Shown: positions 16,871 to 60,937 of the stretch, piece after piece
How the letters are laid out: each line of letters starts with the position of its first letter
How positions within the stretch are numbered: position 1 is the first letter of the stretch
Source: a virus
Lineage: Duplodnaviria > Heunggongvirae > Uroviricota > Caudoviricetes
Direction: 5' to 3' (one strand)
Length of the DNA stretch: 64,000 bases
IMG/VR virus record: IMGVR_UViG_3300005535_000017
Span: 82,331-146,330 of that record
The notes under the pieces: generated by a model
Database searches by the model: none
What the model saw: only the letters and a program-made list of their open reading frames with translations
Told to the model about the DNA's origin: nothing
Translations under genes and position numbers: made by a program

Positions 16871-16872
16871 TC

Positions 16873-18021
16873 ATGAGCAGACGCGCTGTAGACGCCTTCC
16901 CCAAGAAGCGCTCGTCCTCCACGGCGACGACGGATCTTCGCGACGTTTCCGTTTATCGGGGCCGTGTCGTCAACGTCAACATTCGGGACTACACGGTGGA
17001 CACCCGAATGGAGGCTGCGCCCTATACGGTGAAGTTCGACATCCCCTTCATCTCTCCCTACGTGAATCAGAACCAGGGAGAGGGCATCAACTGGATGCCG
17101 GAAGTCGGGTCGGTTTGCTGGGTCTGTGAGCCTTCAGAAGACGGACGAGAGAGCTTCGTTCTTGGCTGGTCTGTGGTGGATGAGGGCGGCAGCTATCGTG
17201 GTGGGCGCTCTCTTCTCAATCCTGGAGACATCGAGCTCAAGACAAGAGACCTGAACTTCGTCACTCTCCGTCGAGGAGGGATCGTTCAGATCGGCTCTAC
17301 TCCCATCTGCCAGCGCATCTTCCTACCCATTCGAAACGTGATGCAGGACTTCGCCGAGAACTACGAGCTCCACACCCCGGCTGGTGACCTCACATGGCAG
17401 GTGCAGAGGAAGGATGAAGATTCCGACGGGCACCAGAAGTGTCTGTACCAAATCGCCGCCAAAGAGTTCGCGGACGACTCCAATGACAAGACGGTCGCCC
17501 TCCTCAAAATCGGTTCCCATGGCGACGGTGACAAGACTATCCTGACGCTGCAAACCCGCGATAAAGGTGGAGGAGACGTCAAGATAGGGCTCACCTTCGA
17601 CAAGGACGGCAACGTCAACTGGACCATGGAAAAGAACTACTCCTTGGTGCTCAACTCAGGTGACCTGACGCTCCAAGCGAAGCAGGGCAAAGTCTCGGTC
17701 TCGTCGAACAAGGCGATGTCGCTCGATAGCCAAGACTCGATGGATCTCCACAGCACAAAGGCGATGGGAATCAAGACGGACGACGCGATGACGATCCAGG
17801 CCATGCAGAAGCTGGTGCTCAAGGGCACAGCGGGGATCGATATCGACTTGGCGCAATGGCCCGTCTTGCGCAACTCTCCTGACTTCATCCAGTTCATCGC
17901 TGCAGTCGCTGCTCAGCTTGGAACTCCAGTGACGACGCCCTTCGGCACTCTCGTCGCTGCGAACCCTGGCATCCTCTCGATGATTCCCAAAAACCACCAG
18001 AACCCGAAGGTGAAGGTCTAA
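16873..18021 (+). CDS. baseplate central spike/hub protein (gpV / gp5-like OB-fold plus beta-helix)
   Basis: 382 aa. N-terminal PYVNQNQGEGINWMPEVGSVCWVCEPSEDGRESFVLGW resembles the P2 gpV OB-fold (VGEQVLILAVGGELDTAFVLPG). C-terminal repetitive beta-strand segment rich in short T/S/D/K units. Start 2 nt after the RNAP stop, no own SD. Confidence 0.5.
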   Translation: MSRRAVDAFPKKRSSSTATTDLRDVSVYRGRVVNVNIRDYTVDTRMEAAPYTVKFDIPFISPYVNQNQGEGINWMPEVGSVCWVCEPSEDGRESFVLGWSVVDEGGSYRGGRSLLNPGDIELKTRDLNFVTLRRGGIVQIGSTPICQRIFLPIRNVMQDFAENYELHTPAGDLTWQVQRKDEDSDGHQKCLYQIAAKEFADDSNDKTVALLKIGSHGDGDKTILTLQTRDKGGGDVKIGLTFDKDGNVNWTMEKNYSLVLNSGDLTLQAKQGKVSVSSNKAMSLDSQDSMDLHSTKAMGIKTDDAMTIQAMQKLVLKGTAGIDIDLAQWPVLRNSPDFIQFIAAVAAQLGTPVTTPFGTLVAANPGILSMIPKNHQNPKVKV

Positions 18022-18022
18022 C

Positions 18023-20041
18023 ATGAATCTCTTCCTCGATCAGGACTTCAAGCCGACCTTCGAGAAGGTGGCCATGCCGGTGAAGCTCGGTGACAACACC
18101 GAGAACTGGCAGCGGGAGATCGCATCGGAGATCTACAAGCAGCTCCCCTACCTGGCGGACTACTCGGTCAACGTGATGCTCGATCGCGTGGATGCCCAGC
18201 GGGGCTACGCCTTCGGAGCTGCCGAAGTCACCAATCAGACGGATTCTCCTCTGCCTGATCAGCCGGAGAACTCGGTCAAGATCCCCATCATCGTCAAGGA
18301 CCGGCTCATGCAGCCACTGGACGTGATGCTCGATGGCAACGAGGCTCTTCCTCTCAACGAACGCCGCCTGCGGGAGAAGCTCTTCCGCACGGCCGCCGTC
18401 GAGACGTCAACCCGCAAGCCCACCGATCAGGGCATGGTCGACCAGCTCTATCCGCCGATGCGTACCAATTACGGCTACGGCAATGCCGTGGCGACTGGCG
18501 TTGGTGTTGGCGGCTTCGGCAAGCAGGCGTCAGCGAAGAAGCCCCTGTGCGAGGTGATTGCCTCGACCATCTCTGATCAACAGTACGAAGCCTTCCTCGA
18601 GAAGATCGCCTCCGACGAGGAGACCCGTCTTCTCTTCCTGAAGAACGCGTCGGTTCGGAAGATCTCGAACCGGATGGCGATGGTTCAGCACATGAGCGTC
18701 GAGAAGACGGCTTCGGCGCTGATCCACAGCATCAAGCCGACGGTCGTGCAGATCACCAAGCTCGCCTCGGGCAACTTCAAGGTGAAGTGGGCCAACGCCG
18801 GCGCCTTCGCTCCGCAGGAGATGCAGGCCTCGCCGGACCAGGCTGCCGCCATGGCTGGGCAGGACATGTCGAAAATGCAGCCAGGTCAGACCATGACGGT
18901 CACCACCCAGCGTGCTCAGAAGCAGGGCCTGGACGAGCCGGATGGGGCGCTCATCACTGAGTTCGGTGATTACGCTGTGAAGAACGCGGACAGTGGCGAG
19001 ACTCTGATGGGCACCGTGCTGCCTGTGGTCGACTTCCAGATGCAGCCACTTGAGTTCTTCGTCTTCACTGATGGCCACGGCGCCTATGGTGCTCAGGACG
19101 AGATCATCGGTGTGCGTCAGGAGGGACCTGGCGGCATGGCTCTCGAGGCGGCTCAAGGACAGCAGCCGCAGGGCGACGGCATTTTCGTCTACCACCCACA
19201 GGGTGGTGCCAAGCCATTCTCGACTCTTCCTCTCACCATCGAATCGACCTCGCAGGGCCCGGACGGGATGCTGCAGTACATGGTCAGCGACGTCTTCGGG
19301 GCGCAGATGACCCTCGTCCCCACTCCTGGTATCTCTGCATTCGAGCCGATGGGAGAGGGCGATATGTTCGCCATCCCGGACGACATGCAGTGGGTGCCCC
19401 TGAGCGGAGAGCCGGTTCACCTGGCCAAGGGTGACACCCCGGACTCGGCGGCCGATGCCAAGAGCTTGCCGAACGAAGTGGCCGTCAAGTCGACGGGCCC
19501 AGGAGAGACGTCTCTCGAGGGCATGCCGGTCATGAAGGTTGCCCGAGACAACCGCTGGTTCTTGAAGACGGCGGAGGCAACGTTCCTGCTCTGCGCCATG
19601 GGCCTTACCCAGGACGAAGCGCAGGAGGTTATCAAGGAAGCGGAGCGTCGCCCCAATAAGCTGGTGAAGCTTGCAGGCCTGAACCCCATCGTGCCGCTCG
19701 GCGACATCCACGCGAATGCAGAGAAGAAGGCTGCGGCGCTGCTCGAGCAATTCGATTACAGCTTCTGGCGCCGGGACTTGGTGAAGGAGGCGGCTGCGCT
19801 CGAGGACACCGAGACGGCCGACAAGATTCTCGCCATGAACTTCATCAACCCGGAGAACATCTCCATCTTCGCCAGCTACCTCCCCGACCTCGACACGACA
19901 TCGACCAAGCTCGCCGAGATGCTGATCGCCTCACGTCTCGGCCTCAACCAGGTCCCGACTGGTGCCGCCGAGCGTGCCATGAAGAACATGGAAGAGGTGA
20001 TCGGCGGCCTTCGCTCGCTCCAGCAGAAGGAGCTCGTCTAA
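18023..20041 (+). CDS. hypothetical protein, probably structural (672 aa)
   Basis: Start 1 nt after the spike stop (translational coupling). No motif recognised. Confidence 0.5.
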   Translation: MNLFLDQDFKPTFEKVAMPVKLGDNTENWQREIASEIYKQLPYLADYSVNVMLDRVDAQRGYAFGAAEVTNQTDSPLPDQPENSVKIPIIVKDRLMQPLDVMLDGNEALPLNERRLREKLFRTAAVETSTRKPTDQGMVDQLYPPMRTNYGYGNAVATGVGVGGFGKQASAKKPLCEVIASTISDQQYEAFLEKIASDEETRLLFLKNASVRKISNRMAMVQHMSVEKTASALIHSIKPTVVQITKLASGNFKVKWANAGAFAPQEMQASPDQAAAMAGQDMSKMQPGQTMTVTTQRAQKQGLDEPDGALITEFGDYAVKNADSGETLMGTVLPVVDFQMQPLEFFVFTDGHGAYGAQDEIIGVRQEGPGGMALEAAQGQQPQGDGIFVYHPQGGAKPFSTLPLTIESTSQGPDGMLQYMVSDVFGAQMTLVPTPGISAFEPMGEGDMFAIPDDMQWVPLSGEPVHLAKGDTPDSAADAKSLPNEVAVKSTGPGETSLEGMPVMKVARDNRWFLKTAEATFLLCAMGLTQDEAQEVIKEAERRPNKLVKLAGLNPIVPLGDIHANAEKKAAALLEQFDYSFWRRDLVKEAAALEDTETADKILAMNFINPENISIFASYLPDLDTTSTKLAEMLIASRLGLNQVPTGAAERAMKNMEEVIGGLRSLQQKELV

Positions 20042-52034: not shown

Positions 52035-53630
52035 TTACTCGGTTGCGGGGTAGATGCACATCACGAAGTCGCCGGGATGGCTGTCGATCTTGACCGTCTG
52101 TATGTTGCCATCGTTGAACTGCAGGAGGTCCTGGTAGCGGCCTTCGGGGTCGTTGGTCGGCTGCTGCTCTCCATTCACATTCTGCACTTTGATGAGGACG
52201 GCGTAGAAGGTGATTCCGTCGAGATAGACGACACCGTGGAAGTTGTCCTCGCCCTCCATCGGATGCAGCTCTCCGAAGCGGAAGCCGCCCGCGGTCGGGA
52301 GATGCCGGCGATGGAAGTTGGCCTGCCGGTCGTGCCCGACGCTGGTGCTGTTCAGGTACTGCAGGTAGCCAGGCGACTCGGACCGCTTGAGCTCGTCGAG
52401 CTGCTCGAGCAGGCCGCGTTGGCGAGACTTCAGCCGCAGCGCCTCCTCCTTAGGATGGTCTTGGAAGTTCATCTCATTGAGCTGTCCGATGAGGGCCATT
52501 GCAGCTCGGGCGAGCCCAGTGATTGCGGCTTCTTGTAGTCGATGCTTGCCGAGATCGAGCTCCGACAACTCCTTGGAGATGGGGCACATCAACTTGCCTC
52601 GAGGAAAGCCGTTCTCGTCGGTGACGACACTGTCGAGAACCTTGTCGGGTTCGAAATTGGAGCGCTTCATCTCCTCTTCGCTGAAGAGACAGGGAACAGC
52701 CGTGATCTTCTTTCTGGTGCTCGTCTCGTTCTGAGAGTACTGACGCTTGAGTGGGCGAAGGTCTTCGGCGAAGCCCGGCGTCTTGGCCGCCTTGCGGAAC
52801 CCGTTGCGGTCTGGGTCGTGGTCTGGGTGAGGGCAGGTCATGGTGTCTCCGTTCTTCTCTGCAGCGCTCATGTAGTACCTCGCTTGTGGGAATGCGTCGT
52901 CGAATTGCTTGAGGAGACGAGTCGCCTGCTCGATCGGTCTACGCTTCCTCTCCTCTTCCATCGCCGCATAGGTGTTGTCGAGCACCTGGATGAAGAGCGC
53001 GGCTTTGCCCTCTTCGATGTAGACCTCGAAGTCTTCTTGATCCGGCTCGTCTGAGACGTGGAAGCCAGCGCCGTGCATGGCGCGCCACACCTCGTTGTTG
53101 GCCCCGCGATAGCCGATCCAAGTATAGGCGTCGTCATTCTTGGGCAGGCCGTGCCCGCAGCCGCACTCTCGTCGGTGAGCGAGCTCGGCGTCGATCGACC
53201 CTTGGAATCGATAGTGGCCGCAGTCTGAGCACATGTCGATGTGCATGCCGCAGGGAATGCCGAGGACAGCCTCGTTGTGCGGGTTATCCCCGCCTTCGTG
53301 GCGATTGTCCATGTGGAGCCAGCCGACACTGCCGCATTCGCAGAGCTCGAAGGATTGGGAAAGCTCATCCTTCCTGCAACGCCAGAAGAACTTCGGCCTG
53401 CCACCGAGGTGTCGAGTGACTCTTTGAAGAGCCATGCTGTCACCACAGACGTTGCAACTGGGGCGAGGAACAGCGACGGTGGCATTGCACTCATCACACT
53501 TGAGCGCGGTGACCTGGCAGTAACCACCACCCATCAAAACCGTATACGATGAGTAGTGCTTCATGGGTCCGTGTCGACGGCACACGGGTCCATCCTTGGC
53601 GGGCATGAAAGCCCGCTGCTCCTCAACCAT
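52035..53630 (-). CDS. hypothetical Cys-rich protein with N-terminal zinc-ribbon-like motifs (531 aa)
   Basis: C..C pairs CDEC, CNVC, CECG, CSDCGH, CGCGH. Last gene of the minus-strand block. Confidence 0.55.
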   Translation of the reverse strand: MVEEQRAFMPAKDGPVCRRHGPMKHYSSYTVLMGGGYCQVTALKCDECNATVAVPRPSCNVCGDSMALQRVTRHLGGRPKFFWRCRKDELSQSFELCECGSVGWLHMDNRHEGGDNPHNEAVLGIPCGMHIDMCSDCGHYRFQGSIDAELAHRRECGCGHGLPKNDDAYTWIGYRGANNEVWRAMHGAGFHVSDEPDQEDFEVYIEEGKAALFIQVLDNTYAAMEEERKRRPIEQATRLLKQFDDAFPQARYYMSAAEKNGDTMTCPHPDHDPDRNGFRKAAKTPGFAEDLRPLKRQYSQNETSTRKKITAVPCLFSEEEMKRSNFEPDKVLDSVVTDENGFPRGKLMCPISKELSELDLGKHRLQEAAITGLARAAMALIGQLNEMNFQDHPKEEALRLKSRQRGLLEQLDELKRSESPGYLQYLNSTSVGHDRQANFHRRHLPTAGGFRFGELHPMEGEDNFHGVVYLDGITFYAVLIKVQNVNGEQQPTNDPEGRYQDLLQFNDGNIQTVKIDSHPGDFVMCIYPATE

Positions 53631-53644
53631 GTTGTCCTCCTGAT

Positions 53645-54007
53645 TTAGGCGGCGGGTGCTACGCAGTACTTCTCGACGAAGGGCATGACCTGAGATACGA
53701 ACGGCTTCTGCACATAGCCGTCTGCGCTCTTGTTGCTGACGAGATCGACTGAGCCGGTGAAGACGATTACGGGGATGGCTTTGAGGCGGGGATCGATGTC
53801 GCGGAAGATCAGGAACTCTTCTCCGTTCATCACCGGCATCGAGTAGTCGAGAAGGATGAGCTCTGGTCTCTCGTTCTCGTCATCGGTGAGATAGGCCAGG
53901 GCGTCTCTTCCATTCTGTTCGCCCCATGCCTCGTAGCCAGAACTGCGGAGCATGTCGATCAGGACCTGGCGGACGGAGTCGTCATCATCAACGACCAGGA
54001 TCATCAC
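53645..54007 (-). CDS. stand-alone response-regulator receiver (CheY-like REC) domain protein
   Basis: 120 aa. ILVVDDDDSVR (acidic pocket), LILLDYSMPVMNG (phospho-acceptor Asp), VIVFTG (Thr/Ser), YVQKPF (Lys). No output domain. Confidence 0.8.
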   Translation of the reverse strand: MMILVVDDDDSVRQVLIDMLRSSGYEAWGEQNGRDALAYLTDDENERPELILLDYSMPVMNGEEFLIFRDIDPRLKAIPVIVFTGSVDLVSNKSADGYVQKPFVSQVMPFVEKYCVAPAA

Positions 54008-54072: not shown

Positions 54073-54507
54073 TTACCCTATTTTCGCCTCCGGCAGCCAA
54101 GTGTTCCGTGACCACAGGTAGTTGCGGTACTCGGTCAAACTCTGCACTGGTCGCTGAACGCTTGGTGACACTGGGATCATTGGTGGCCGGAGATGGCGCT
54201 TCCACCGCTTGAAGTCCCGGACTCGCTTCCTGATGTAGCCTCGCAGCGTCTTGGACCAGCAGACGTCGCACCAGCCGCGGTCCGGCGTGTAGCCGCGTCC
54301 CATGTCCTCGTACTCGGCTTCGCCGATGAGGTGCTTCATCTCGTCGCAGTCATCGCAGCCCCTGCACCAGGGAGTGCGGCGAGATCCTCGATGATGGGAG
54401 CTGATGCAGATGAAAGTGAGGCAGGGTACTTCGTGTCTGCAGCCGCGTGCGCGGATGCGGTTCTCAGTTAGCTCAACGCCGTACACGTCCCTTCCTGGTA
54501 GCAACAC
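54073..54507 (-). CDS. hypothetical Cys/His-rich protein (144 aa)
   Basis: CRHEVPC, HH, CRGCDDCDE, CDVC. Possibly a zinc-finger or HNH-like nuclease. Unresolved. Confidence 0.45.
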   Translation of the reverse strand: MLLPGRDVYGVELTENRIRARGCRHEVPCLTFICISSHHRGSRRTPWCRGCDDCDEMKHLIGEAEYEDMGRGYTPDRGWCDVCWSKTLRGYIRKRVRDFKRWKRHLRPPMIPVSPSVQRPVQSLTEYRNYLWSRNTWLPEAKIG

Positions 54508-54736
54508 GTTTCACCCCCTTGGCTGCGACACGCTTGCGAATGAGGATGTAGCGGCACGTCGGTCCGCGGCTCGGCTCCGTCGTGATGACGTAGCCGTCTT
54601 TCCGCAGGTCGTAGATCCTCGCCGGGGATCGCCTCCCGCACTTCTTGATCAACGCCTGCACAGGCACTCCTTTTGCTCCGCCCTTCTCGAGCAGAGACAA
54701 AACAGAGGCCTTCTTGGACAACGTATCTTTGCTCAT
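54473..54736 (-). CDS. small basic protein, possible winged-helix DNA-binding protein (87 aa)
   Basis: LSLLEKGGAKGVPVQALIKKCG...IYDLRKDGYVI pattern with an Arg/Lys-rich tail. Confidence 0.4.
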   Translation of the reverse strand: MSKDTLSKKASVLSLLEKGGAKGVPVQALIKKCGRRSPARIYDLRKDGYVITTEPSRGPTCRYILIRKRVAAKGVKRVATRKGRVRR

Positions 54737-54769: not shown

Positions 54770-56959
54770 CTATCCTCTCGACCGCAAATACTTCTCAAAA
54801 TTCTGAATCACCAGATTCTGAAGTACGCGGTCGACAGAATTCTCGTCATCTCGAGAAGAGGCATTACGCCAGAAGCGAGGAGGTCCGAACATCTTCCTGC
54901 ATTCCTGATCGTCGATGCCGCCGTCGATAACCAAGGTGTACACGTTCACACCTCTCTGCCGCGCCCATTGGATCTCCTTCATTACATACTGCTGAAGGAC
55001 CCAGGTGGGGAGGCCTTGTCCACTGCTCTTCGCGCTGCACGGCGATCCATCTGTCAGCAGGAAGAGGTATTTCGCCATTCCAGGGGACATCTGAGTCAGC
55101 AGGTATCGAGAAGCGACGCGGATCGCCGAGTGCATTGGGGTCAGGCCACCACACTCGACTGGGATTGAGTAATTCTTGCCGGCCGGCTTTGCAGAGCCCA
55201 AGTAGCCCTCGCATTCGCGGTCCCAGCGGTAGATCCAGACCTGACCACTTCTGTCGTATTTTCCACCCTCTCCGCCTCTGAATCCCCAGCGCCGGCCATC
55301 AACGAAGGGGAAGCGAAGAGAGCGTCGGAGCATCTCTCCCGCATGCATTACTTGGTAAAGCCGCTCACCGTCCATCGAGCCGGACATATCGCAAAGGGTG
55401 AGATATCCGAACCCTTGGTTGTTCATATCCTGCTCGAAGATCGAACTGTCATTCGGCTCGATAGCGAACTGAATCGCTGAGTCGACGTCGATGCTGACCC
55501 CGCTCTCGTTGCGCTGCATCTTCTGCCTACCGAGAGTCCTGAAGAAGACGCTGCGCATTCTCTCGACCGCTTCGAGCTCTTTCTCCTTCAGTGCGACCTT
55601 CGAGCGGATGTTCTCCGGCTTCACGTCGATGAAGAGAATCTTCGCCTTGGCGTCGGCCATGAGCTGGCTATCGGGAGAGACTTGCGTCATCCCATCGCGG
55701 AAGCTGTCGATTGCCTGTTGCATGTCCCCATCGATTTGACCGATGTCCTCATCGGTCGGGATAGCGCCGTCGACGTCCTGGAAGACCTGGGCGATTGCCG
55801 ACCGCACGGCGTCGGGCACCGTGGTCATGTCGACTTTGTCGGGAAGGGGATGGTTCTCTTGCTCGTCGAACTGAGTCGAGTGGCGGATCAGAGAGCTGAG
55901 AGCATTGCTCACCTGTGACGCGTCGGGGACGGGTACATCGCCTGTCCCCTGGTCGTGTGGCTCGGAAGCACTGGCTGATTGCGACGCTCCATCGGGAACG
56001 CTGCCTCCAGCTTGTCCCTGATCACTTGCTCCTCCGGCATCTCCTGGGGTGCCAGACGAAGCTCCGGCTCCGGCACTGCCCGCTTGGGCCTGCTGCGCAT
56101 CTTGTCCTCCTTGTTGTGGCTGTTGTGGTGCCTGCGAAGGAGGGGGAGGATGCATCTCTTCGAGCAGTTTGTCTAGACACTGATTCAGGGCAAGGCGGGC
56201 GACGACGAGGGATCGCTGGTATCCCTTGTACCGGATGTGGTGCATGCCCCATTCGATGCAAGGCCGAAGAGGCTCAAAAGGTCCATCTGATACGGTAGGA
56301 GTTCCAAGCGCAACGGCGAAGAGAAAGGCGATGAAGTTCTCGCTGTTGGCTTCTGCTCCTCGACTATTAGAAATACGCGTCCATCGTCTCCAAATTCGAT
56401 CCGCAGAGCCGGGGTAGAGAAGCTCCCAAAGAGAATTGCAGCGAATATCATCGAAGGCGTTGAGGACGTAGAAAAGGAATCTTTCGAGTTGCGCAGGATC
56501 AACATGTGGCGCCTTCTGCTTGAGTTCGTGGACCCAAGGCGCGAGGAAGAGCTTCGCAGTCTTGGGGTCCGTCTTGAAGAGAATGTGCTGCCATTCGTGC
56601 TCGAACCCAAGGTAACCCTGCTCAGCTCCGCAAGTCATGCACGAGAGTGTATCGCCGGGCAGTACGTCGAGCTTGCCCTCCCACTCGTGTCCGCAGGCGA
56701 GTCGGTAGGTATGCCGTCCTCGTGATTCGCCGAGCAGCTCCACCACCTCTTGGTCGATCGGATCGGCGAACTTCACCCAGATGGTGGAGGTGCAGTCCGT
56801 CTGATTCTGATGACCCTCCTGCACCCTGATGTCCTTCTTGTAGGCCCGCTTGAATGTATCGTTGGTGCGATAGATCGGGTTCTTGTCGATCGGAGCCTCA
56901 TAGTGTCGATTTGGTGGAGGAGACTTGCCACCAGAAACATAGTAAGAGCTGTTCGCCAC
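54770..56959 (-). CDS. von Willebrand factor A (vWA) domain protein, CobT-like
   Basis: 729 aa. MIDAS motif LTLCDMSGSMDGER (DxSxS) in the C-terminal third. Long acidic, Gln-rich middle. Sits three genes downstream of an AAA+ ATPase gene. Confidence 0.7.
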   Translation of the reverse strand: MANSSYYVSGGKSPPPNRHYEAPIDKNPIYRTNDTFKRAYKKDIRVQEGHQNQTDCTSTIWVKFADPIDQEVVELLGESRGRHTYRLACGHEWEGKLDVLPGDTLSCMTCGAEQGYLGFEHEWQHILFKTDPKTAKLFLAPWVHELKQKAPHVDPAQLERFLFYVLNAFDDIRCNSLWELLYPGSADRIWRRWTRISNSRGAEANSENFIAFLFAVALGTPTVSDGPFEPLRPCIEWGMHHIRYKGYQRSLVVARLALNQCLDKLLEEMHPPPPSQAPQQPQQGGQDAQQAQAGSAGAGASSGTPGDAGGASDQGQAGGSVPDGASQSASASEPHDQGTGDVPVPDASQVSNALSSLIRHSTQFDEQENHPLPDKVDMTTVPDAVRSAIAQVFQDVDGAIPTDEDIGQIDGDMQQAIDSFRDGMTQVSPDSQLMADAKAKILFIDVKPENIRSKVALKEKELEAVERMRSVFFRTLGRQKMQRNESGVSIDVDSAIQFAIEPNDSSIFEQDMNNQGFGYLTLCDMSGSMDGERLYQVMHAGEMLRRSLRFPFVDGRRWGFRGGEGGKYDRSGQVWIYRWDRECEGYLGSAKPAGKNYSIPVECGGLTPMHSAIRVASRYLLTQMSPGMAKYLFLLTDGSPCSAKSSGQGLPTWVLQQYVMKEIQWARQRGVNVYTLVIDGGIDDQECRKMFGPPRFWRNASSRDDENSVDRVLQNLVIQNFEKYLRSRG

Positions 56960-56968
56960 GGGATACTC

Positions 56969-57469
56969 CTACTTGACGACTGGACCATAAACATGAAACG
57001 CCACCGCTCCCATTTCCAGTAGGAAGCTGCCGAGATATGGGAGAGCGTAGGAGAACTTCTTTCCAACAACGTTCGTGTCCTCCTCTTCCGGCACCGTGCC
57101 TCCCGTCGGGATGACGTGATAGGTGTATGGCACGAGATTTCTATCGTTGGCGTCCACTTCTGCCCAGATCGAGACGTGCTCCTTCGGCACGGCGTAATTG
57201 CCCATGATCTTCGTCTGTGGATGAATGCCGCGGACGACGACGGTCTTGATGCGCCCGCTAATTCTGCGCACCACCGCGCCTCTCGGCATCTTGACGATGG
57301 CGGTGTAGGCCTTGAGCTCTCCAGTGAGCTCGCGGCGCTGCATCTCTTCTTCAGAACCGCCGAGCGGGAAATCGAACTCCTCGATCGTTTTCATTCTTCC
57401 TCTCCCTTTCTGAAGTCCGAATACGTGCCGTCGCAGTAGCGCCAGCCGCTGATCTTGCATCGAACGCAC
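56969..57469 (-). CDS. hypothetical protein (166 aa; may start at internal Met)
   Basis: Between the AAA+ and vWA genes. Overlaps the upstream 77-aa ORF. Confidence 0.4.
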   Translation of the reverse strand: MRSMQDQRLALLRRHVFGLQKGRGRMKTIEEFDFPLGGSEEEMQRRELTGELKAYTAIVKMPRGAVVRRISGRIKTVVVRGIHPQTKIMGNYAVPKEHVSIWAEVDANDRNLVPYTYHVIPTGGTVPEEEDTNVVGKKFSYALPYLGSFLLEMGAVAFHVYGPVVK

Positions 57470-57624
57470 TTCACGAAGGCAGCGGCATCATCAGGGCCAG
57501 CACCGCCGCGGAGTATCTTCTCTCTGAAGCTGTGCCAGCCGTTGTCGCAGAACCACAGACCAATGCGCTGCCATCTCGTGAGACGCGTCTGAGCAGAGGC
57601 GGCGCTCTCACGATAGGGGTTCAC
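57391..57624 (-). CDS. hypothetical small Cys-containing protein (77 aa)
   Basis: Coupled to the AAA+ gene (overlap 57621-57624). Confidence 0.3.
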   Translation of the reverse strand: MNPYRESAASAQTRLTRWQRIGLWFCDNGWHSFREKILRGGAGPDDAAAFVKCVRCKISGWRYCDGTYSDFRKGEEE

Positions 57625-58601
57625 TTGCCGTCCCAGAACTCAGTGACCGTGGCGCCCTTGAAGATGGAGCCCACCCGGGCCAGGGCGGTCTTCCTCTCCT
57701 CGCCCTCGTATTTGCACACCAGCATTTGAAGCGCAGGCTTCAGTCCGTTGGTGCGAACCGTCTGCAGCGTACGGACGATGTCTCGAGTGGAGAGGGCGTA
57801 GCCGATCGCCTTCTGCCTCGACTCCTTGGCGAATCGAAGCATCAGATCGGTGATGTCTTCCATCGCCGCATCCATCTGACCGAGATTGGCGCGGATGATC
57901 TGCTTCTCGTATTCGGTGGGCGGGTAGTCCGTCTCGATCTCGCTCATGCGAGACTTCAGATCCTCGTTGAGATCGTAGGTGCCTCCGTACACCGACGGAT
58001 TCATCGTCCCGGTGAACCACACCGTGCAGCCCTGGTTGAGTCGGAAGGTCTGCCCAAGAGAGTCCACTTCCACCGCGCGCTCTTGCAGGACGCCGTTGAG
58101 CATCTTCTGCGACTGCGGAGTGAGGGCATTGAACTCCTCGAAGAGCAGGATGCACCTGCCGACTTCATTGGCGATGCGGATTGCCTTCGGCAGACCAGAG
58201 AGCACGAACTTCGTCTCTCGCCCCACCAGGACATATCGCCCGATGAGCTGCAAGTCCTTGGTGTTCTCTGAGCACTCCACCACGACGAGTGGGATGCGCC
58301 AGGCGAAGGCTGCGGCTCGAATCGAGAGAGACTTCCCGTTGCCCTTCGGTCCCTTCAGCAAGAGATTGCCGTGGTCCTGAAAAGCGAGAGCTTGATACTG
58401 CGGCATCAACCCGAAGACGTCGACGAAGGGGACGGTCTGGTTGACCAAGAGCTCTGATGCAGGTGTGCAGATGATGGGGATGTGTTTCTCGTCGGCATGA
58501 GCCGACCGTTGGATCTCTCCTCGTGAGTAAAGGGATTCGATCAGCGCAGTCTTCTGATCAGCCGGCAGTCCATCGAGCCATTGGTTCCACGGATTCGACA
58601 T
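57621..58601 (-). CDS. AAA+ ATPase, MoxR/CobS-like (AAA_5 type)
   Basis: 326 aa. Walker A LLLKGPKGNGKS. Walker B CILLFEEFNAL. Arginine-finger region downstream. Confidence 0.7.
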   Translation of the reverse strand: MSNPWNQWLDGLPADQKTALIESLYSRGEIQRSAHADEKHIPIICTPASELLVNQTVPFVDVFGLMPQYQALAFQDHGNLLLKGPKGNGKSLSIRAAAFAWRIPLVVVECSENTKDLQLIGRYVLVGRETKFVLSGLPKAIRIANEVGRCILLFEEFNALTPQSQKMLNGVLQERAVEVDSLGQTFRLNQGCTVWFTGTMNPSVYGGTYDLNEDLKSRMSEIETDYPPTEYEKQIIRANLGQMDAAMEDITDLMLRFAKESRQKAIGYALSTRDIVRTLQTVRTNGLKPALQMLVCKYEGEERKTALARVGSIFKGATVTEFWDGK

Positions 58602-58727
58602 TCATCGCTCCTTGATAAGAAACGGATCTGGGATCACCGCGCTTATCCCGGAGGAGTTGTAGCGTTTTCCGTCGGTGCTGTCAGCTAAGAAAATGCCGGA
58701 GAAGATCCGGCGAGGAGTACTGGGGAA

Positions 58728-59588
58728 CTACTGGAGAGAGACGGTCCAGGGCATTGAAGCCGACACGTCGAAGGAGAACGAGGTCTGCGTCAGCGAGTAG
58801 GAGGAGAGACCCGTCGCCGCAACACTCATGCACCCCATCTGGTTCGGTCCCCCGGAATAGGACTGGTAGTTGATGAACGTCTGGGGCCAGTTCTGCCAGT
58901 AGAGCTTGGTGCCTTGGAAGGCCTGCCAGAAGAGCTGGTTCGAGAAGGTGAAGATGCCTTCATCCGACGAGACGTACGGAGTGCCAGTGCAGTTGTTCGT
59001 GGGGTAGTAGAACTTCGTCGGCTTCTGCGTGATGATGTAGTTGTACGGATAGTTGGCCACCGGGTTCGAGGTGTTGTTGGTCATAGCGTAGAGGCCGACG
59101 CCGCCGTTGCCGAGAGGCGCGAGCATGCCGATGTACTGCGTCGTGCCGGCGAGCACACCAGTGACCTGCAGAGCTCTGCCGTCCTTGCCGGCCGCTCCAG
59201 CAACGCCCTGCGGTCCTTGAGCTCCCTGCGCACCGGTGTCGCCCTTCGGCCCCTGGATGCCCTGCGGGCCCTGAGCGCCCGTGTCGCCCTTGGGTCCCTG
59301 CATGCCCATCGGACCCTGGACACCTTGCACGCCTTGCGGACCCTGCACGCCCTGATCGCCCTTCGGGCCTTGGAGACCCTGGGCGCCGGTCATTCCAACA
59401 TCACCCTTGTCGCCCTTCGCACCAGCAAGCCCTTGCGGGCCAGCGGGGCCAGGGACGCCCGAGCACACGCCGCCGTCAGCGGACATGCACATCGGGATTT
59501 CGGCGGGCTTCTGCGCCCCGGCCGCGGAACCCGAATCGCAGCCAGCACTACCGATTGCCAGGAGAGACACCGCGAGGATGTAGCGCAT
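58728..59588 (-). CDS. collagen triple-helix repeat protein with lipoprotein-type signal peptide
   Basis: 286 aa. N-terminal MRYILAVSLLAIGSAGC (lipobox-like LAIGSAGC). About 31 uninterrupted G-X-Y triplets, then a 150-aa C-terminal beta-rich domain. Confidence 0.8.
   Translation of the reverse strand: MRYILAVSLLAIGSAGCDSGSAAGAQKPAEIPMCMSADGGVCSGVPGPAGPQGLAGAKGDKGDVGMTGAQGLQGPKGDQGVQGPQGVQGVQGPMGMQGPKGDTGAQGPQGIQGPKGDTGAQGAQGPQGVAGAAGKDGRALQVTGVLAGTTQYIGMLAPLGNGGVGLYAMTNNTSNPVANYPYNYIITQKPTKFYYPTNNCTGTPYVSSDEGIFTFSNQLFWQAFQGTKLYWQNWPQTFINYQSYSGGPNQMGCMSVAATGLSSYSLTQTSFSFDVSASMPWTVSLQ
59178..59459 (-). repeat. collagen-like G-X-Y tandem triplet repeat (coding)
   Basis: Nucleotide 9-mer periodicity ggn ccn nnn, encoding GPAGPQGLAGAKGDKGDVG... 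through AGKDG. Confidence 0.75.
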
Positions 59589-60134: not shown

Positions 60135-60782
60135 TTACTTTGAGAGGGCTTCGGAGCTGGCTGGGGCGGTCATGGCACCCCTAGTCCAGTCTGGAGAGTC
60201 TTCTTCAGGCCCCTCATACACCTTCCCGATCTTGTAGACCTTTCCACTATTCACATCGATGAGAGCCGACTTGAGGTCCATCGGCATTTCGACTCGTGTG
60301 GCGGCCGCCTGCTGCACAGCCTGTGTGTGCATCGCTGGTGGAAGGTGAAGCTTCGATGGCGCCCGAGAGTGTTCTTCGCGTGCGTGAATGGTCAGGAAGC
60401 TTTCAACAGCGCGGACGTGTCCCGACAGCTCAGCGATCGCCTTGCTGTATTCCTTGTCGTTCTTCTGCAGCTCTTCGACTGCGACCTTCGTTGCCGCGTA
60501 GCCGGCCTCCGCTTCCGCCTTGGTCTCATTGGCCTTCATCTGGGCCTCTACCTTGGCCGCCCGATACGAGAAGTAGCTAGTGATGAGAGGTGGGATGGCC
60601 ACCACCAGCAAGACCAGCCACCAGGGGCTCTTGCGGTACTTCTTGAGTATGCCTTCGGGTGAGGTGTGGGACTCGTCCTCGTGCTGCTCTGCTGCGTTGT
60701 GCATGAGCGAAGTTTGGATCGGAACCTCGTCGCTGGGAAGGACAGCTAAGAAGAAGCGAGAGTACATCCTCGCTTCTTCCAA
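60135..60782 (-). CDS. N-terminal-TM coiled-coil protein (i-spanin-like?)
   Basis: 215 aa. TM WWLVLLVVAIPPLITSYFSY, then a long Ala/Glu/Lys-rich helix. Track start is TTG; the ATG is at 60767. Confidence 0.45.
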   Translation of the reverse strand: MEEARMYSRFFLAVLPSDEVPIQTSLMHNAAEQHEDESHTSPEGILKKYRKSPWWLVLLVVAIPPLITSYFSYRAAKVEAQMKANETKAEAEAGYAATKVAVEELQKNDKEYSKAIAELSGHVRAVESFLTIHAREEHSRAPSKLHLPPAMHTQAVQQAAATRVEMPMDLKSALIDVNSGKVYKIGKVYEGPEEDSPDWTRGAMTAPASSEALSK

Positions 60783-60784
60783 GG

Positions 60785-60937
60785 CTAGCGGCCGGGCGCC
60801 ACGACCTCGACCTTCTTCTTCCCGGCGTTGTAGGCGATCGGAGCCGCGATCGCGGTCCCGGCCACCACACCACCGACGATGGCGAGAGTGAGAGTAGCGG
60901 TGGAGCTGAGGCCGAGAGCGACGAGAGACTTGAACAT
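60785..60937 (-). CDS. small hydrophobic membrane peptide (50 aa), holin-like
   Basis: AGGAGG RBS then ATG (rc of 60935-60937). MFKSLVALGLSSTATLTLAIVGGVVAGTAIAAPIAYNAGKKKVEVVAPGR: one or two TM segments plus a charged tail. Not in ORF track (<60 aa). Confidence 0.35.
   Translation of the reverse strand: MFKSLVALGLSSTATLTLAIVGGVVAGTAIAAPIAYNAGKKKVEVVAPGR

Follow-up and report, generated by a model that had tools for sequence, protein, structure and literature searches.

Viral copies of the gene pair encoding a MoxR-class ATPase and a MIDAS vWA protein are common, and their role has not been established (PMC8651126, PMC7824862), a view that the original prediction shared. Viral "cobST-like" two-gene clusters have been described in pLF82/SSU5-type phage-plasmids, Gordonia phages GMA3 and GMA7, haloviruses HVTV-1 and HCTV-2, and Thermus phage P74-26 (gp49/gp48), with the proposal that they boost cobalamin in archaeal and bacterial tailed viruses (Liu et al. 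2021, PMC8651126). A different proposal assigns MoxR-vWA pairs to virion assembly, with p618/p892 of the archaeal virus ATV as precedent (Iyer et al. 2021, PMC7824862). Among cellular systems, the solved CobT begins with an M48C-like N-domain, which is followed by a disordered linker, then a shaft, and finally a vWA domain (structures 9UKA etc., bioRxiv 10.64898/2026.07.21.739949).

The pair described here comes from an uncultivated jumbo phage of roughly 210 kb, of which a stretch of 64,000 nucleotides (the window) was analyzed, and it is a divergent member of the viral "cobST-like" or MoxR-metallopeptidase-vWA class already in the literature. Judged by sequence, it is CobS/CobT-like in architecture and not a set of cobaltochelatase orthologues, because neither protein reaches the curated thresholds: the ATPase scored 21 bits on the CobS equivalog model, whose cut-off is 558, and the vWA protein was not matched by the CobT equivalog model, whereas Rhizobium controls scored 652 and 1111 bits. 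Profile comparison thus bore out the similarity to MoxR-class ATPases and CobS but not orthology to CobS or CobT. The region is probably one operon encoding a motor and its adaptor, a two-component machine like CobS/CobT, NorQ/NorD, and CbbQ/CbbO.

Organization of the locus

An ORF check of the window recovered the four predicted ORFs at their predicted coordinates, all on the minus strand, in the 5′-3′ order AAA+ ATPase, 77-aa ORF, DUF7352, and vWA protein (Table 1). The ATPase stop codon shares a 4-nt GTGA overlap with the start of the 77-aa ORF, which in turn overlaps the DUF7352 start by 4 nt (ATGA), the DUF7352 and vWA genes are 9 nt apart, and each start in the cassette has its own Shine-Dalgarno sequence. 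With junctions this tight, the four genes fit a single phage operon. The AAA+ then vWA order recurs in 10/10 distinct related loci and in P74-26. Homologues (40 for the vWA protein, 128 for the ATPase), E-values down to 0, and GC3 of 0.66-0.78 versus GC2 of 0.40-0.44 in the cassette genes put these reading frames far beyond a chance origin. A promoter and terminator scan of the region returned nothing above chance; one terminator-like hairpin is a possible 5′ limit of the operon, although the number of such hairpins in the region is not above shuffle expectation.

Table 1. Features of the cassette and its surroundings, with positions in the window
Feature	Residues	Position	Strand	Remarks
NrdJ, class II adenosylcobalamin-dependent ribonucleotide reductase		6602-9337	+	
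vWA protein		54770-56959	-	729 aa, CobT-architecture adaptor (by analogy)
vWA domain	515-729	54773-55417	-	
MIDAS D637		within 55040-55060	-	
MIDAS T607		within 55133-55150	-	
MIDAS DMSGS	D524-x-S526-x-S528	55376-55390	-	
Helical pre-vWA region	346-514	55418-55924	-	basic helix and low-confidence loops (480-514)
Inter-domain linker	~275-345	55925-56137	-	disordered, Q/G/A/S/P/D-rich
Zincin-like N-domain	27-270	56150-56881	-	
FDDIRCNS motif	acidic residue 170, R173	56432-56455	-	
HExxH	H121, E122, H125	56585-56599	-	
Zn-ribbon insert		56627-56695	-	CxH...CxxC
DUF7352 gene		56969-57394	-	141 aa; maximal ORF (166 aa) to 57469
77-aa ORF		57391-57624	-	
AAA+ ATPase		57621-58601	-	326 aa
Sensor-2	R273	within 57780-57794	-	
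Arg finger	R218	within 57945-57959	-	
Sensor-1	N201	within 57993-58007	-	
Walker B ILLFEE	151-156	58134-58151	-	
Walker A GPKGNGKS	84-91	58329-58352	-	
Terminator-like hairpin		58695-58711	-	between collagen gene and ATPase gene
Collagen-repeat protein		58728-59588	-	lipoprotein signal (lipobox ...SAG|C); Pfam Collagen 1.2e-16

The AAA+ ATPase

The 326-aa protein is a MoxR-class (AAA_5) ATPase, with matches to Pfam AAA_5 (55 bits, 1.1e-14) and to PHROG 249, a phage "CobS-like" family (4.3e-23). Walker A, Walker B with its EE, sensor-1, the Arg finger, and sensor-2 are invariant in an alignment of 23 homologues. Against the PDB, the family profile matched midasin, CbbQ, NorQ, and CobS, with CbbQ (80.6 bits) and NorQ (61 bits) scoring above CobS. 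In hhalign, the ATPase matched CobS at 96% probability, in alignments of 244-254 columns that take in the H2 insert and the C-terminal helices. The original prediction of a CobS/CobT-type AAA+ and MIDAS vWA pair is upheld by these matches and by the domain order of the partner protein, and the Walker A/B and MIDAS motifs on which it drew are present both in the sequence and in the alignments of homologues.

The vWA protein

The AlphaFold2 (AF2) model of the 729-aa protein has a pLDDT of 79.7 and aligned over its full length with viral CobT-like/VWFA proteins in BFVD (E 4.5e-12), and the C-terminal half matches a CobT_C profile (E 8e-5); the protein had no PHROG match. Its domains follow the order seen in CobT: the zincin-like N-domain comes first, a disordered linker and a putative shaft follow, and the vWA domain is last.

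The N-domain has a zincin fold, and its HExxH motif is intact in 35/37 and 59/76 family members, while the acidic residue at 170 and R173 are present in 76/76. The motif is degenerate in the other 17/76 (e.g., ERQLAH, EHQLAH), and catalysis would therefore be dispensable in some lineages. The Zn-ribbon insert occurs in 19/76 members. On sequence grounds, the main difference from cellular CobT is this conserved HExxH zincin-like domain, in which a protease-type zinc site, lost from bacterial CobT, is kept. The original prediction named MIDAS and Walker motifs only and did not include the N-terminal HExxH domain.

The linker (G15 Q13 A13 S10 P7 D6 of 71 residues) has a pLDDT <50 across residues 282-340, differs in length and sequence among homologues, and occupies the position of the ~90-aa disordered linker in CobT. 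The low-complexity stretch first read as a Gln/Gly/Asp-rich insert is real, but it joins two domains rather than interrupting the vWA domain. The helical region that follows contains conserved residues (R467, R469, F472, G477, K480, R483, G487, and D491), with low pLDDT at 480-490 and 504-514, and the hhalign match to CobT starts just upstream of the MIDAS; we propose that this region corresponds to the CobT "shaft". The vWA domain carries a complete MIDAS (D524, S526, S528, T607, D637) that is strictly conserved in 37 sequences and strictly or almost strictly conserved in 76. Pfam VWA is matched by 29/37 family members, and among PDB structures Foldseek ranked the vWA domain of NorD, from the NorQD complex, first (9qh6_G, 6e-7). 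If the parallel with CobST and NorQD holds, the protein would be the adaptor of the motor; of the predicted chaperone-substrate pair, the pairing stands but the label "substrate" would not.

Intervening genes

Two small ORFs of 77 and 166 aa had been predicted between the pair, and the 77-aa ORF was retained. The 166-aa ORF is only a maximal frame: its 25-codon extension has an atypical GC3 of 0.52, and the real gene encodes the 141-aa DUF7352 protein, starting at ATG 57394 behind the Shine-Dalgarno sequence GGGAGAGGA, the length also called in public assemblies (P0161). The protein matches Pfam PF24043 (3.3e-9) and PHROG 3848. DUF7352 homologues lie between the ATPase and vWA genes at loci L002, L003, L007, L009, L096, and L097 and are absent from this position at L098, L008, L005, L010, and P74-26, making DUF7352 a frequent yet dispensable third gene of the cassette.

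With DUF7352 starting at 57394, the 77-aa ORF fits exactly between its neighbors. It looks coding, with a GC3 of 0.70 that is seen in no other frame and gene calls on 6 contigs of the same phage, and it contains a possible C-x4-H...C-x2-C zinc site. It had no homologue in the related loci examined and no Pfam or PHROG match. Found in this phage only, it is a lineage-specific ORF inserted after the ATPase and before DUF7352. The cassette has a variable insertion slot.

Genomic neighborhood

A collagen-repeat lipobox gene lies upstream of the ATPase here and at L002, L096, L097, L098, L003, L007, and L008, and is absent at L009 and L005. As all eight versions (8/8) carry a lipoprotein signal, the product is probably an exported protein and not a virion component. 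The REC gene predicted downstream of the pair was confirmed, and a Pfam search of the upstream genes, the putative "lysis-like cassette", gave no matches. The pair had no tblastn match in 50,697 deposited phage genomes.

Genes for DNA and nucleotide metabolism surround the pair in four distant lineages: dCMP deaminase in the window; UDG, ThyX, dNMP kinase, and MazG at L005; DnaB in P74-26; and ligase, primase, and helicase in pLF82. The window also encodes NrdJ (NCBIfam NF005122, 1129.6 bits, cut-off 859; TIGR02504, 583.7 bits, cut-off 400), and P74-26 combines the pair with an AdoCbl RTPR in one genome.

Possible function

We infer a complex in which the 326-aa ATPase would form a hexameric ring and, by analogy with CobST, the 729-aa adaptor would insert its pre-vWA "shaft" into the ring pore and place its N-domain on the ATPase lid. 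The zincin-like N-domain would join the MIDAS face of the vWA domain in holding a client protein, which ATP hydrolysis would then remodel; with the HExxH and acidic-residue site kept, the adaptor may also cleave the client or itself. It is possible, and we suggest it only tentatively, that the client step belongs to the phase of DNA and nucleotide metabolism rather than to late virion assembly, and that the client is an enzyme dependent on a metal or cofactor, for which a link to the B12-dependent ribonucleotide reductase (RNR) of this phage would be the most plausible. The link to RNR draws on two genomes, those of this phage and P74-26, and one literature statement, and it is weakened by T4-like cyanophages, which carry cobS alongside class I RNRs. 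An intein at Walker B of the L005 ATPase was counted among the evidence on timing and client, with the DNA-metabolism neighborhoods and AdoCbl RNRs.

The same reductases would suit true cobaltochelatase subunits, with phage CobS and CobT joining host CobN to raise cobalamin and feed a B12-dependent RNR. That hypothesis is already in print for tailed viruses, and the architecture and the cobS-cobT gene order agree with it, but it appears quite improbable given the scores on the curated models, the rank of CbbQ and NorQ above CobS, and the HExxH, which the adaptor keeps and 0/70 cellular CobT sequences have. The adaptor N-domain, moreover, is without sequence similarity to CobT_N, the CobN-contacting part of the solved holoenzyme, and the 64-kb window yielded no cobN. 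Homologous pairs also occur in phage-plasmids of E. coli, which is not known to have CobN or de novo B12 synthesis. Rather doubtful, too, is a role as a chaperone of virion assembly that brings its own maturation protease, in which the MoxR-vWA pair would fold or assemble structural proteins, fibres or tails for example, and the HExxH domain would trim them. The architecture described for group 2.2 jumbo phages and the ATV precedent (PMC7824862) favor this, and ATV ORF892 is among the structural matches (E 4.5e-4). The conserved HExxH in a zincin fold also fits, as does the conserved upstream collagen-repeat gene, of a type filed by PHROGs under tail fibres. Collagen binding by vWA domains is classically mediated by the MIDAS, which counts for the assembly role. 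However, the cassette lies outside the structural module, in the metabolic surroundings described above; the collagen-repeat neighbor, with its lipoprotein signal, is probably exported and is missing from two loci; and the HExxH is degenerate in some members.

It is very unlikely that the phage carries the pair as a module for defence or counter-defence, akin to bacterial vWA-MoxR ternary systems or to IetAS-type ATPase-protease systems. Such vWA-MoxR conflict systems are known in bacteria (PMC7159879), the cassette's insertion slot would be in keeping with one, and in PADLOC the ATPase matched IetA weakly (E 4.5e-5 at best, 21 bits), but the vWA protein, DUF7352, and the 77-aa ORF had no match. 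Effector domains and a large VMAP-like partner are lacking, and the pair belongs to the conserved core gene set of the phage lineage, with the same order in distant phages. That the genes are mere neighbors acting independently, adjacent through the shared ancestry of related phages, can be given hardly any weight: most loci do come from related ~100-210-kb phages, in which synteny is expected anyway, yet adjacency and order persist despite different flanks (L002, L003, L008, L005) and in the unrelated P74-26, stop and start codons overlap, and characterized MoxR-class ATPases with an adjacent vWA gene all work with its product.

Comparison with known systems

The preferred reading, a motor-adaptor pair, has several counterparts. 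ATV p618 (MoxR) and p892 (vWA) form a viral pair described as experimentally supported, for tail development (PMC7824862), but ATV is an archaeal virus, its vWA protein is without a peptidase domain, and the similarity is very remote, the structural match of ORF892 being weak.

CobS and CobT resemble the present proteins in gene order, domain order, and size (326 vs ~330 aa; 729 vs ~633 aa), and the ATPase aligned to residue 316/330 of CobS. They differ in the curated models, which the phage proteins fail, in having a CobN partner, with none known here, in the HExxH, absent from 70/70 CobT sequences, and in the fourth MIDAS ligand, which is Asn in CobT and Thr in the adaptor; N-domain similarity to cellular CobT was not significant (E 0.03-0.4). 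NorQ/NorD and CbbQ/CbbO share the same 6:1 motor-adaptor logic. Among single-domain PDB sequences, the ATPase profile matched CbbQ and NorQ best, and among solved structures the vWA domain came closest to NorD. However, NorQ and CbbQ (~270 aa) are without the C-terminal extension common to CobS and the present ATPase, NorD and CbbO are not described with a zincin-like HExxH N-domain, and nor or cbb genes are absent here.

Group 2.2 jumbo phages, exemplified by ASV44729.1 and ASV44728.2, have by description, the sole basis of this comparison, the same architecture, in which a MoxR ATPase accompanies a vWA co-chaperone that carries a metallopeptidase domain at its N-terminus (PMC7824862). The present phage is likewise jumbo, but its gene neighborhood does not support the virion-assembly role proposed for them. 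In the viral cobST-like clusters, a MoxR-class ATPase likewise adjoins a 560-860-aa protein with an N-domain, an acidic or low-complexity linker, and a MIDAS vWA domain, structural alignments are full-length (up to E 4.5e-12), and the pairs lie in DNA-metabolism neighborhoods. The "CobT" of pLF82-type phage-plasmids has a homologous N-domain (E 1.3e-5) with HExxH and NxLED motifs in register, although gene order in pLF82 is reversed, and P74-26 gp48 is without HExxH. Sequence identity with these clusters is just 11-14%, and the present clade adds the Zn-ribbon insert, seen in 19/76 members of the family, and, often, DUF7352 between the pair.

Genome setting and coding potential of the cassette

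All four open reading frames (ORFs) of the cassette lie on the same, minus strand in the six-frame ORF list, at the coordinates of the original prediction. Their codon-position GC content is typical of coding sequence, with GC3 of 0.66-0.78 and GC2 of 0.38-0.44 in a window of 60% GC. Homologs were recovered for both the vWA protein (n = 40) and the ATPase (n = 128), with E-values down to 0 and on contigs of up to ~212 kb, and the identical sequence is present on a contig of 210,361 bp. The window is phage DNA, with genes for the large subunit of terminase, for a helicase and a ribonucleotide reductase, and for a protein of minor-head or protease-like type. DNA and tblastn searches of 50,697 deposited phages returned no match for the region, the ATPase, the vWA protein, the DUF7352 protein, or the distant family members P0308 and P0200, so the family is known only from metagenomes.

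Positions of the cassette genes, their neighbors, and features of related loci (L numbers) discussed in the text
Feature	Record	Position	Strand	Length
AAA+ ATPase ORF	window	57621-58601	-	326 aa
Small ORF	window	57391-57624	-	77 aa
DUF7352, maximal ORF	window	56969-57469	-	166 aa
vWA protein ORF	window	54770-56959	-	729 aa
Collagen-repeat protein	window	58728-59588	-	
Collagen-repeat protein	L002	4825-5670		
Collagen-repeat protein	L003	4751-5572		
Collagen-repeat protein	L007	2685-3632		
Collagen-repeat protein	L008	4150-4920		
Collagen-repeat protein	L096-L098			
Protein with N-terminal TM helix	window	60135-60937	-	215 aa
Response-regulator receiver and winged-helix protein	window	53645-54007 and 54473-54736	-	
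Protein with CxxC/CxxH pairs	window	52035-53630	-	531 aa
RNA polymerase beta/beta'-like fusion	window	10514-16870	+	2118 aa
NrdJ	window	6602-9337	+	
Acidic ORF between ATPase and vWA genes	L007	5419-5634		71 aa
ORF between ATPase and vWA genes	L097	4620-5123		167 aa
Intein-bearing ATPase homolog	L005	5867-7954		
ORF overlapping intein-bearing gene	L005	6396-7331		311 aa
CobT-like protein and adjacent AAA ATPase	NZ_CP134368.1 (L101)	15918-19357		

The ATPase

The ATPase matches Pfam AAA_5 (1.1e-14, 55.1 bits against a cut-off of 22) and PHROG 249 (4.3e-23), a phage family labeled 'porphyrin biosynthesis' or CobS-like. The Walker A and B motifs first read from the sequence were found to be invariant in an alignment of 23 homologs, down to 37% identity, as GPKGxGK[ST] at residues 84-91 and hhhFEE with E155 and E156, and so are sensor-1 N201, the Arg finger R218, and sensor-2 R273. 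The AAA_5 score and these intact motifs place the enzyme in the MoxR class. Against the PDB, the family profile scored 139.9 bits with midasin (summed over several AAA modules), 80.6 with CbbQ, 61 with NorQ, and 57 with CobS; in sequence the enzyme is thus no closer to CobS than to other MoxR-class ATPases. The equivalog model for CobS, TIGR01650, gave 21.3 bits against a cut-off of 558.55, whereas Rhizobium CobS, the positive control, reached 651.9 bits. The ATPase is thus a MoxR-class AAA_5 protein that falls outside the curated CobS family.

In size and layout, however, the ATPase resembles CobS, whose ~330 aa include a hairpin formed by the H2 insert and additional lid helices at the C-terminus. 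Alignment by hhalign (96.3-96.6% probability, E = 5e-10 to 2e-9, 244-254 columns) takes in both the hairpin region and these helices and reaches residue 316 of the 330 of CobS. The C-terminal helices are presumably the functional equivalents of the CobS lid helices that bind the CobT N-domain.

Other assignments were rejected. Mg-chelatase BchI/BchD combines a D subunit carrying an N-terminal AAA-like domain with an I subunit in clade 7 that has a pre-sensor-2 insert; it is ruled out by the N-domain of the vWA protein, which has a zincin rather than an AAA fold. The Mg_chelatase Pfam family gave no match, and the lone BchD match was a marginal vWA hit (E = 0.33). Membership in a known anti-phage defense system was likewise dismissed, as the PADLOC models gave the ATPase no more than weak IetA matches (21 bits) and did not match the remaining three proteins.

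The vWA protein and its zincin-like N-domain

The AlphaFold model of the vWA protein, the probable adaptor of the ATPase and hereafter called the adaptor, was built from 37 sequences with a mean pLDDT of 79.7 and comprises a confident N-domain (residues 27-270), a disordered stretch (282-340), a helical region with low-confidence loops (480-490 and 504-514), and the vWA domain (515-729). The MIDAS motif, as predicted, is complete: the DxSxS residues D524, S526, and S528 do not vary across the 76 family members, and 75 of the 76 have T607 and D637. Pfam VWA matches 29 of 37 members and scores 23.7 bits on the window adaptor, just below the gathering score of 23.8; with the Rossmann-like fold, DxSxS, Thr, and Asp all in place, the domain is a vWA domain with MIDAS.

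Among solved structures, the vWA domain of NorD, from the NorQ-NorD complex, ranks first (6e-7), ahead of the vWA domains of integrin I and the anthrax receptor, with a Foldseek probability of 1.00 against NorD, integrin I, and ANTXR. The top-ranking viral structure predictions align over the full length (~800 columns, E = 4.5e-12 to 1e-7) at an identity of 11-14%. In Gordonia phages GMA3 and GMA7, haloviruses HCTV-2 and HVTV-1, and Thermus phage P74-26, these are proteins of 560-860 aa that carry the annotation 'CobT-like', 'cobalamin biosynthesis protein', or 'VWFA'. PHROGs hold no family for the vWA protein, a PDB sequence search found nothing, a PDB profile search gave only a marginal CobT MIDAS match and low-complexity noise, and hhalign of the adaptor family with gp48, the vWA protein of P74-26, was not significant (E = 0.033).

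Alignment revealed a domain that the original prediction had missed, an HExxH-bearing N-domain of zincin-like fold. It is a candidate zincin (HExxH) metallopeptidase, a class marked by HExxH on the active-site helix, a third ligand farther along, the zincin fold, and peptidase activity. The nearly invariant FEHEWQH supplies HExxH at H121, E122, and H125, and the motif NAFDDIRCNSLW follows ~45 residues later, with position 170 always acidic and R173 invariant in the adaptor family alignments. Of the 37 close members, 35 have an intact HExxH, as do 59 of 76 members of the broader family, the remainder having variants such as ERQLAH and EHQLAH, and 19 of the 76 carry a CxH...CxxC zinc-ribbon-like insert (C89, H91, C107, C110) just before the HExxH helix. 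Names listed alongside this domain are PprI/IrrE, BlaR1, ArdC, jannalysin, abylysin, and selecase. No Pfam family covers it in the 37 + 10 family members scanned, and an exhaustive HMMER search of 1.84 billion representatives returned only 292 proteins, nearly all of 570-800 aa and with the architecture of the adaptor.

Probable operon structure and synteny

The genes are tightly packed. A GTGA overlap joins the ATPase stop to the start of the 77-aa ORF, and an ATGA overlap joins the stop of the latter to the ATG at 57394, which starts DUF7352 and is preceded by GGGAGAGGA; 9 nt then separate the end of DUF7352 from the GTG start of the vWA gene, where a separate AGGAG is present. The stretch from the collagen-repeat gene to the ATPase gene contains a terminator-like hairpin; such sites are no more frequent than in shuffles, and the promoter and terminator scan as a whole gave no more sites than shuffled sequence.

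The ATPase gene lies directly upstream of the vWA gene in 10 of 10 distinct related loci and in P74-26 (gp49/gp48), and the content between them varies. DUF7352 stands there alone in L002, L003, L009, and L096, together with the 77-aa ORF in the window, and with an unrelated ORF in L007 or L097; nothing intervenes in L098 (whose ATPase is 70% identical), L008, L005, L010, and P74-26. This variation points to the ATPase-vWA pair as the core and DUF7352 as a common accessory, and since the close relative L098 and all distant lineages do without DUF7352, it is not an obligatory third subunit. Insertions occur in the slot that follows the ATPase gene, which behaves like a hotspot for them. DUF7352 corresponds to Pfam PF24043 and PHROG 3848, and no literature on its function was found. 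The 77-aa ORF has no homolog in any relative; it is called on six contigs of the same phage and has coding-like GC3 in its own frame only, and the possibility that it is an artefact of the 166-aa frame was rejected on codon-position GC and the exact overlaps.

Neighboring genes

Just upstream of the ATPase gene stands the gene for a collagen-repeat protein, which keeps this place even where other flanking genes differ. The protein (256-315 aa) has a lipoprotein signal (lipobox with Cys), ~30 KGD-rich collagen G-x-y repeats, and, at the C-terminus, a conserved globular domain whose end reads PWT..LQ. Farther upstream, a 215-aa protein with one N-terminal TM helix and a coiled-coil-looking region, with no match in Pfam, is preceded by a 50-aa TM protein; these two may be the lysis-like (spanin/holin-like) cassette noted in the original prediction. 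Downstream of the cassette are a stand-alone response-regulator receiver (1.8e-15) and a small winged-helix protein, and a REC gene is also near the cassette in L002, L003, L096, and L098. The 531-aa protein has many CxxC/CxxH pairs in its N-terminal third and no Pfam, PHROG, or NCBIfam match.

Two further genes deserve mention. In L005, a locus on the 126-kb contig Ga0180438_10000202, the ATPase homolog carries an intein right after Walker B (LCLEEIN/CLYP...GTHN/SLTPQ), overlapped in another frame by an ORF with zinc-finger-like and Vsr/DUF559-like (DGDYWHP) motifs. The window also holds a single ORF that fuses multisubunit RNA polymerase beta-like and beta'-like parts, matched by rpoB models at residues ~293-1011 and by rpoC models at ~1164-2086.

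Viral relatives

Pairs of this kind have been described, both as a viral cobST cluster (Liu et al. 2021, PMC8651126) and, in jumbo phages, as a MoxR-vWA pair that includes a metallopeptidase domain at the N-terminus (Iyer et al. 2021, PMC7824862). The N-domain profile matches the 'CobT' of pLF82-type E. coli phage-plasmids (E = 1.3e-5, 80.7% probability, 131 columns), in which DHEVAHILF and NALEDVF put HExxH and NxLED in register, and the ATPase profile matches the product of the adjoining AAA gene (E = 2.2e-5). Because the motifs are in register and all 70 cellular CobT sequences compared lack HExxH, the adaptor is assigned to the viral CobT-like class (pLF82/SSU5-type), whose members are built like CobT and mostly retain the zinc-site motif that the cellular protein lacks. 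The window family is a very divergent member of the class already described: it has no match in deposited phages, neither a PHROG nor a Pfam model for the N-domain, and low identity to its structural matches, and its lineage-specific extras are the Zn ribbon, DUF7352, and the conserved collagen-lipoprotein neighbor. With the corrections made here, the reading of the genes as a CobS/CobT-like pair is supported.

The vWA half of CobT also has matches on around 1000 plasmids (~100-120 kb) of Klebsiella, E. coli, Acinetobacter, Yersinia, and others, in proteins annotated as 'porphyrin/cobalamin biosynthesis protein'. One of them, NZ_CP134368.1, encodes a CobT-like protein with intact HEVAH beside an AAA ATPase, and looks like a phage-plasmid, since phage tail and replication genes are on it.

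Possible function

Tailed viruses carry few 'auxiliary' genes as widespread as CobS/CobT-like pairs, for which no function is known to have been demonstrated. Characterized pairs of a MoxR-class ATPase and a vWA protein, such as CobST-CobN, NorQD-NorB, CbbQO-Rubisco, CoxDE, and RavA-ViaA, all work as a motor with its adaptor and serve a single dedicated client, which they remodel or metallate (10.64898/2026.07.21.739949). As all characterized pairs work in this manner, the cassette pair is probably such a machine, in which the adaptor shaft would enter the pore of the ATPase ring, the N-domain would sit on the ATPase lid, and the MIDAS and zincin face would be turned toward the client.

One proposed client is host CobN, which the pair would hijack to boost B12 (PMC8651126). 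The phage does encode a bona fide class II AdoCbl-dependent ribonucleotide reductase, NrdJ (1129.6 bits against a cut-off of 859), and P74-26 combines its pair with an AdoCbl-dependent RTPR; a viral contig scan with the window NrdJ returned only near-identical relatives. Recruitment of CobN is nevertheless quite unlikely, given that the CobS and CobT equivalog tests both failed, that the adaptor retains HExxH, and that its N-domain showed no significant similarity to CobT_N, one of the surfaces that contact CobN. Homologous pairs also occur in phage-plasmids of E. coli, which is not known to have CobN, and no large ORF of the 64-kb window (64 of ~210 kb) is CobN-like. A role in virion assembly with proteolytic processing (PMC7824862) would draw on the HExxH motif, the ATV precedent, and the collagen-repeat neighbor; it too seems improbable, because in four distant lineages the pair sits among genes of DNA and nucleotide metabolism (dCMP deaminase in the window; UDG, ThyX, dNMP kinase, and MazG in L005; DnaB next to the P74-26 pair; ligase, primase, and helicase near the pLF82 pair), and because the collagen-repeat protein, having a lipobox in all eight versions, is probably exported.

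Weighing the evidence on these two proposals, we lean tentatively toward nucleotide metabolism: the pair could act mid-infection on a metal- or cofactor-dependent enzyme of this metabolism, the most concrete candidate being the phage's own B12-dependent ribonucleotide reductase. A bolder and doubtful reading holds that the pair is no B12 device but an ATP-driven, MIDAS-targeted metalloprotease or remodeling machine, with the adaptor as the ancestral live form of the dead zincin of cellular CobT and DUF7352 as a co-factor. Its client would be either the phage AdoCbl ribonucleotide reductase, which it would load with cofactor or reactivate, or the collagen-repeat lipoprotein, in which case MIDAS would bind a collagen KGD/KGE motif as integrin I-domains do. 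Two concrete client candidates come from the B12-dependent ribonucleotide reductases that co-occur with the pair and from the collagen-lipoprotein gene conserved beside it, and the retained HExxH suggests a protease or remodeling activity that can be tested.

Comparison with cellular CobT

In the CobSTN holoenzyme, as described in a 2026 preprint, CobT has a disordered linker of ~90 residues, a 'shaft' that is ordered only once inserted in the nucleotide-bound CobS ring, and a vWA domain with MIDAS residues D422, S424, S426, N518, and D546; CobT_N sits on the CobS lid, and on its far side, near the MIDAS, CobT is bound by CobN (10.64898/2026.07.21.739949). The adaptor shares the CobT order of parts, namely an M48C/zincin-like N-domain (in CobT, one helix, a beta-sheet, and about eight helices), a disordered linker (~90 aa in CobT), a putative shaft, and a MIDAS vWA domain. 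From this shared order, its Q/G/A/S-rich stretch is the counterpart of the CobT linker; the low-complexity stretch predicted as a Gln/Gly/Asp-rich insert is therefore present, but as an inter-domain linker.

Comparison with the Rhizobium cobS-cobT locus (L015) and 70 further CobT genes showed similarity in the C-terminal half, which matches the CobT_C profile (E = 8e-5, 186 columns). For the N-domain, hhalign with single and profile CobT_N, the profile being Hyphomicrobiales-only and of low diversity, gave no significant match (E = 0.03-0.42, in inconsistent registers). The adaptor thus resembles CobT in architecture but not in the curated models: NCBIfam gave no match to CobT TIGR01651 (cut-off 759 bits; Rhizobium CobT, 1110.7 bits), and PF06213, the CobT N-domain, matched none of the 37 + 10 family members.

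For the window, the analysis chiefly confirms a known gene pair and classifies it correctly. DxSxS was present in the scanned region of 64 of the 70 Hyphomicrobiales CobT proteins, whereas the N-domain HExxH was found in none of them. Its retention in most of the viral family and in the E. coli phage-plasmid 'CobT' argues against reading the viral pair in metagenome surveys simply as cobalamin-synthesis genes, and the most useful lead is this general difference, with HExxH borne by viral CobT-like adaptors and missing from cellular CobT.
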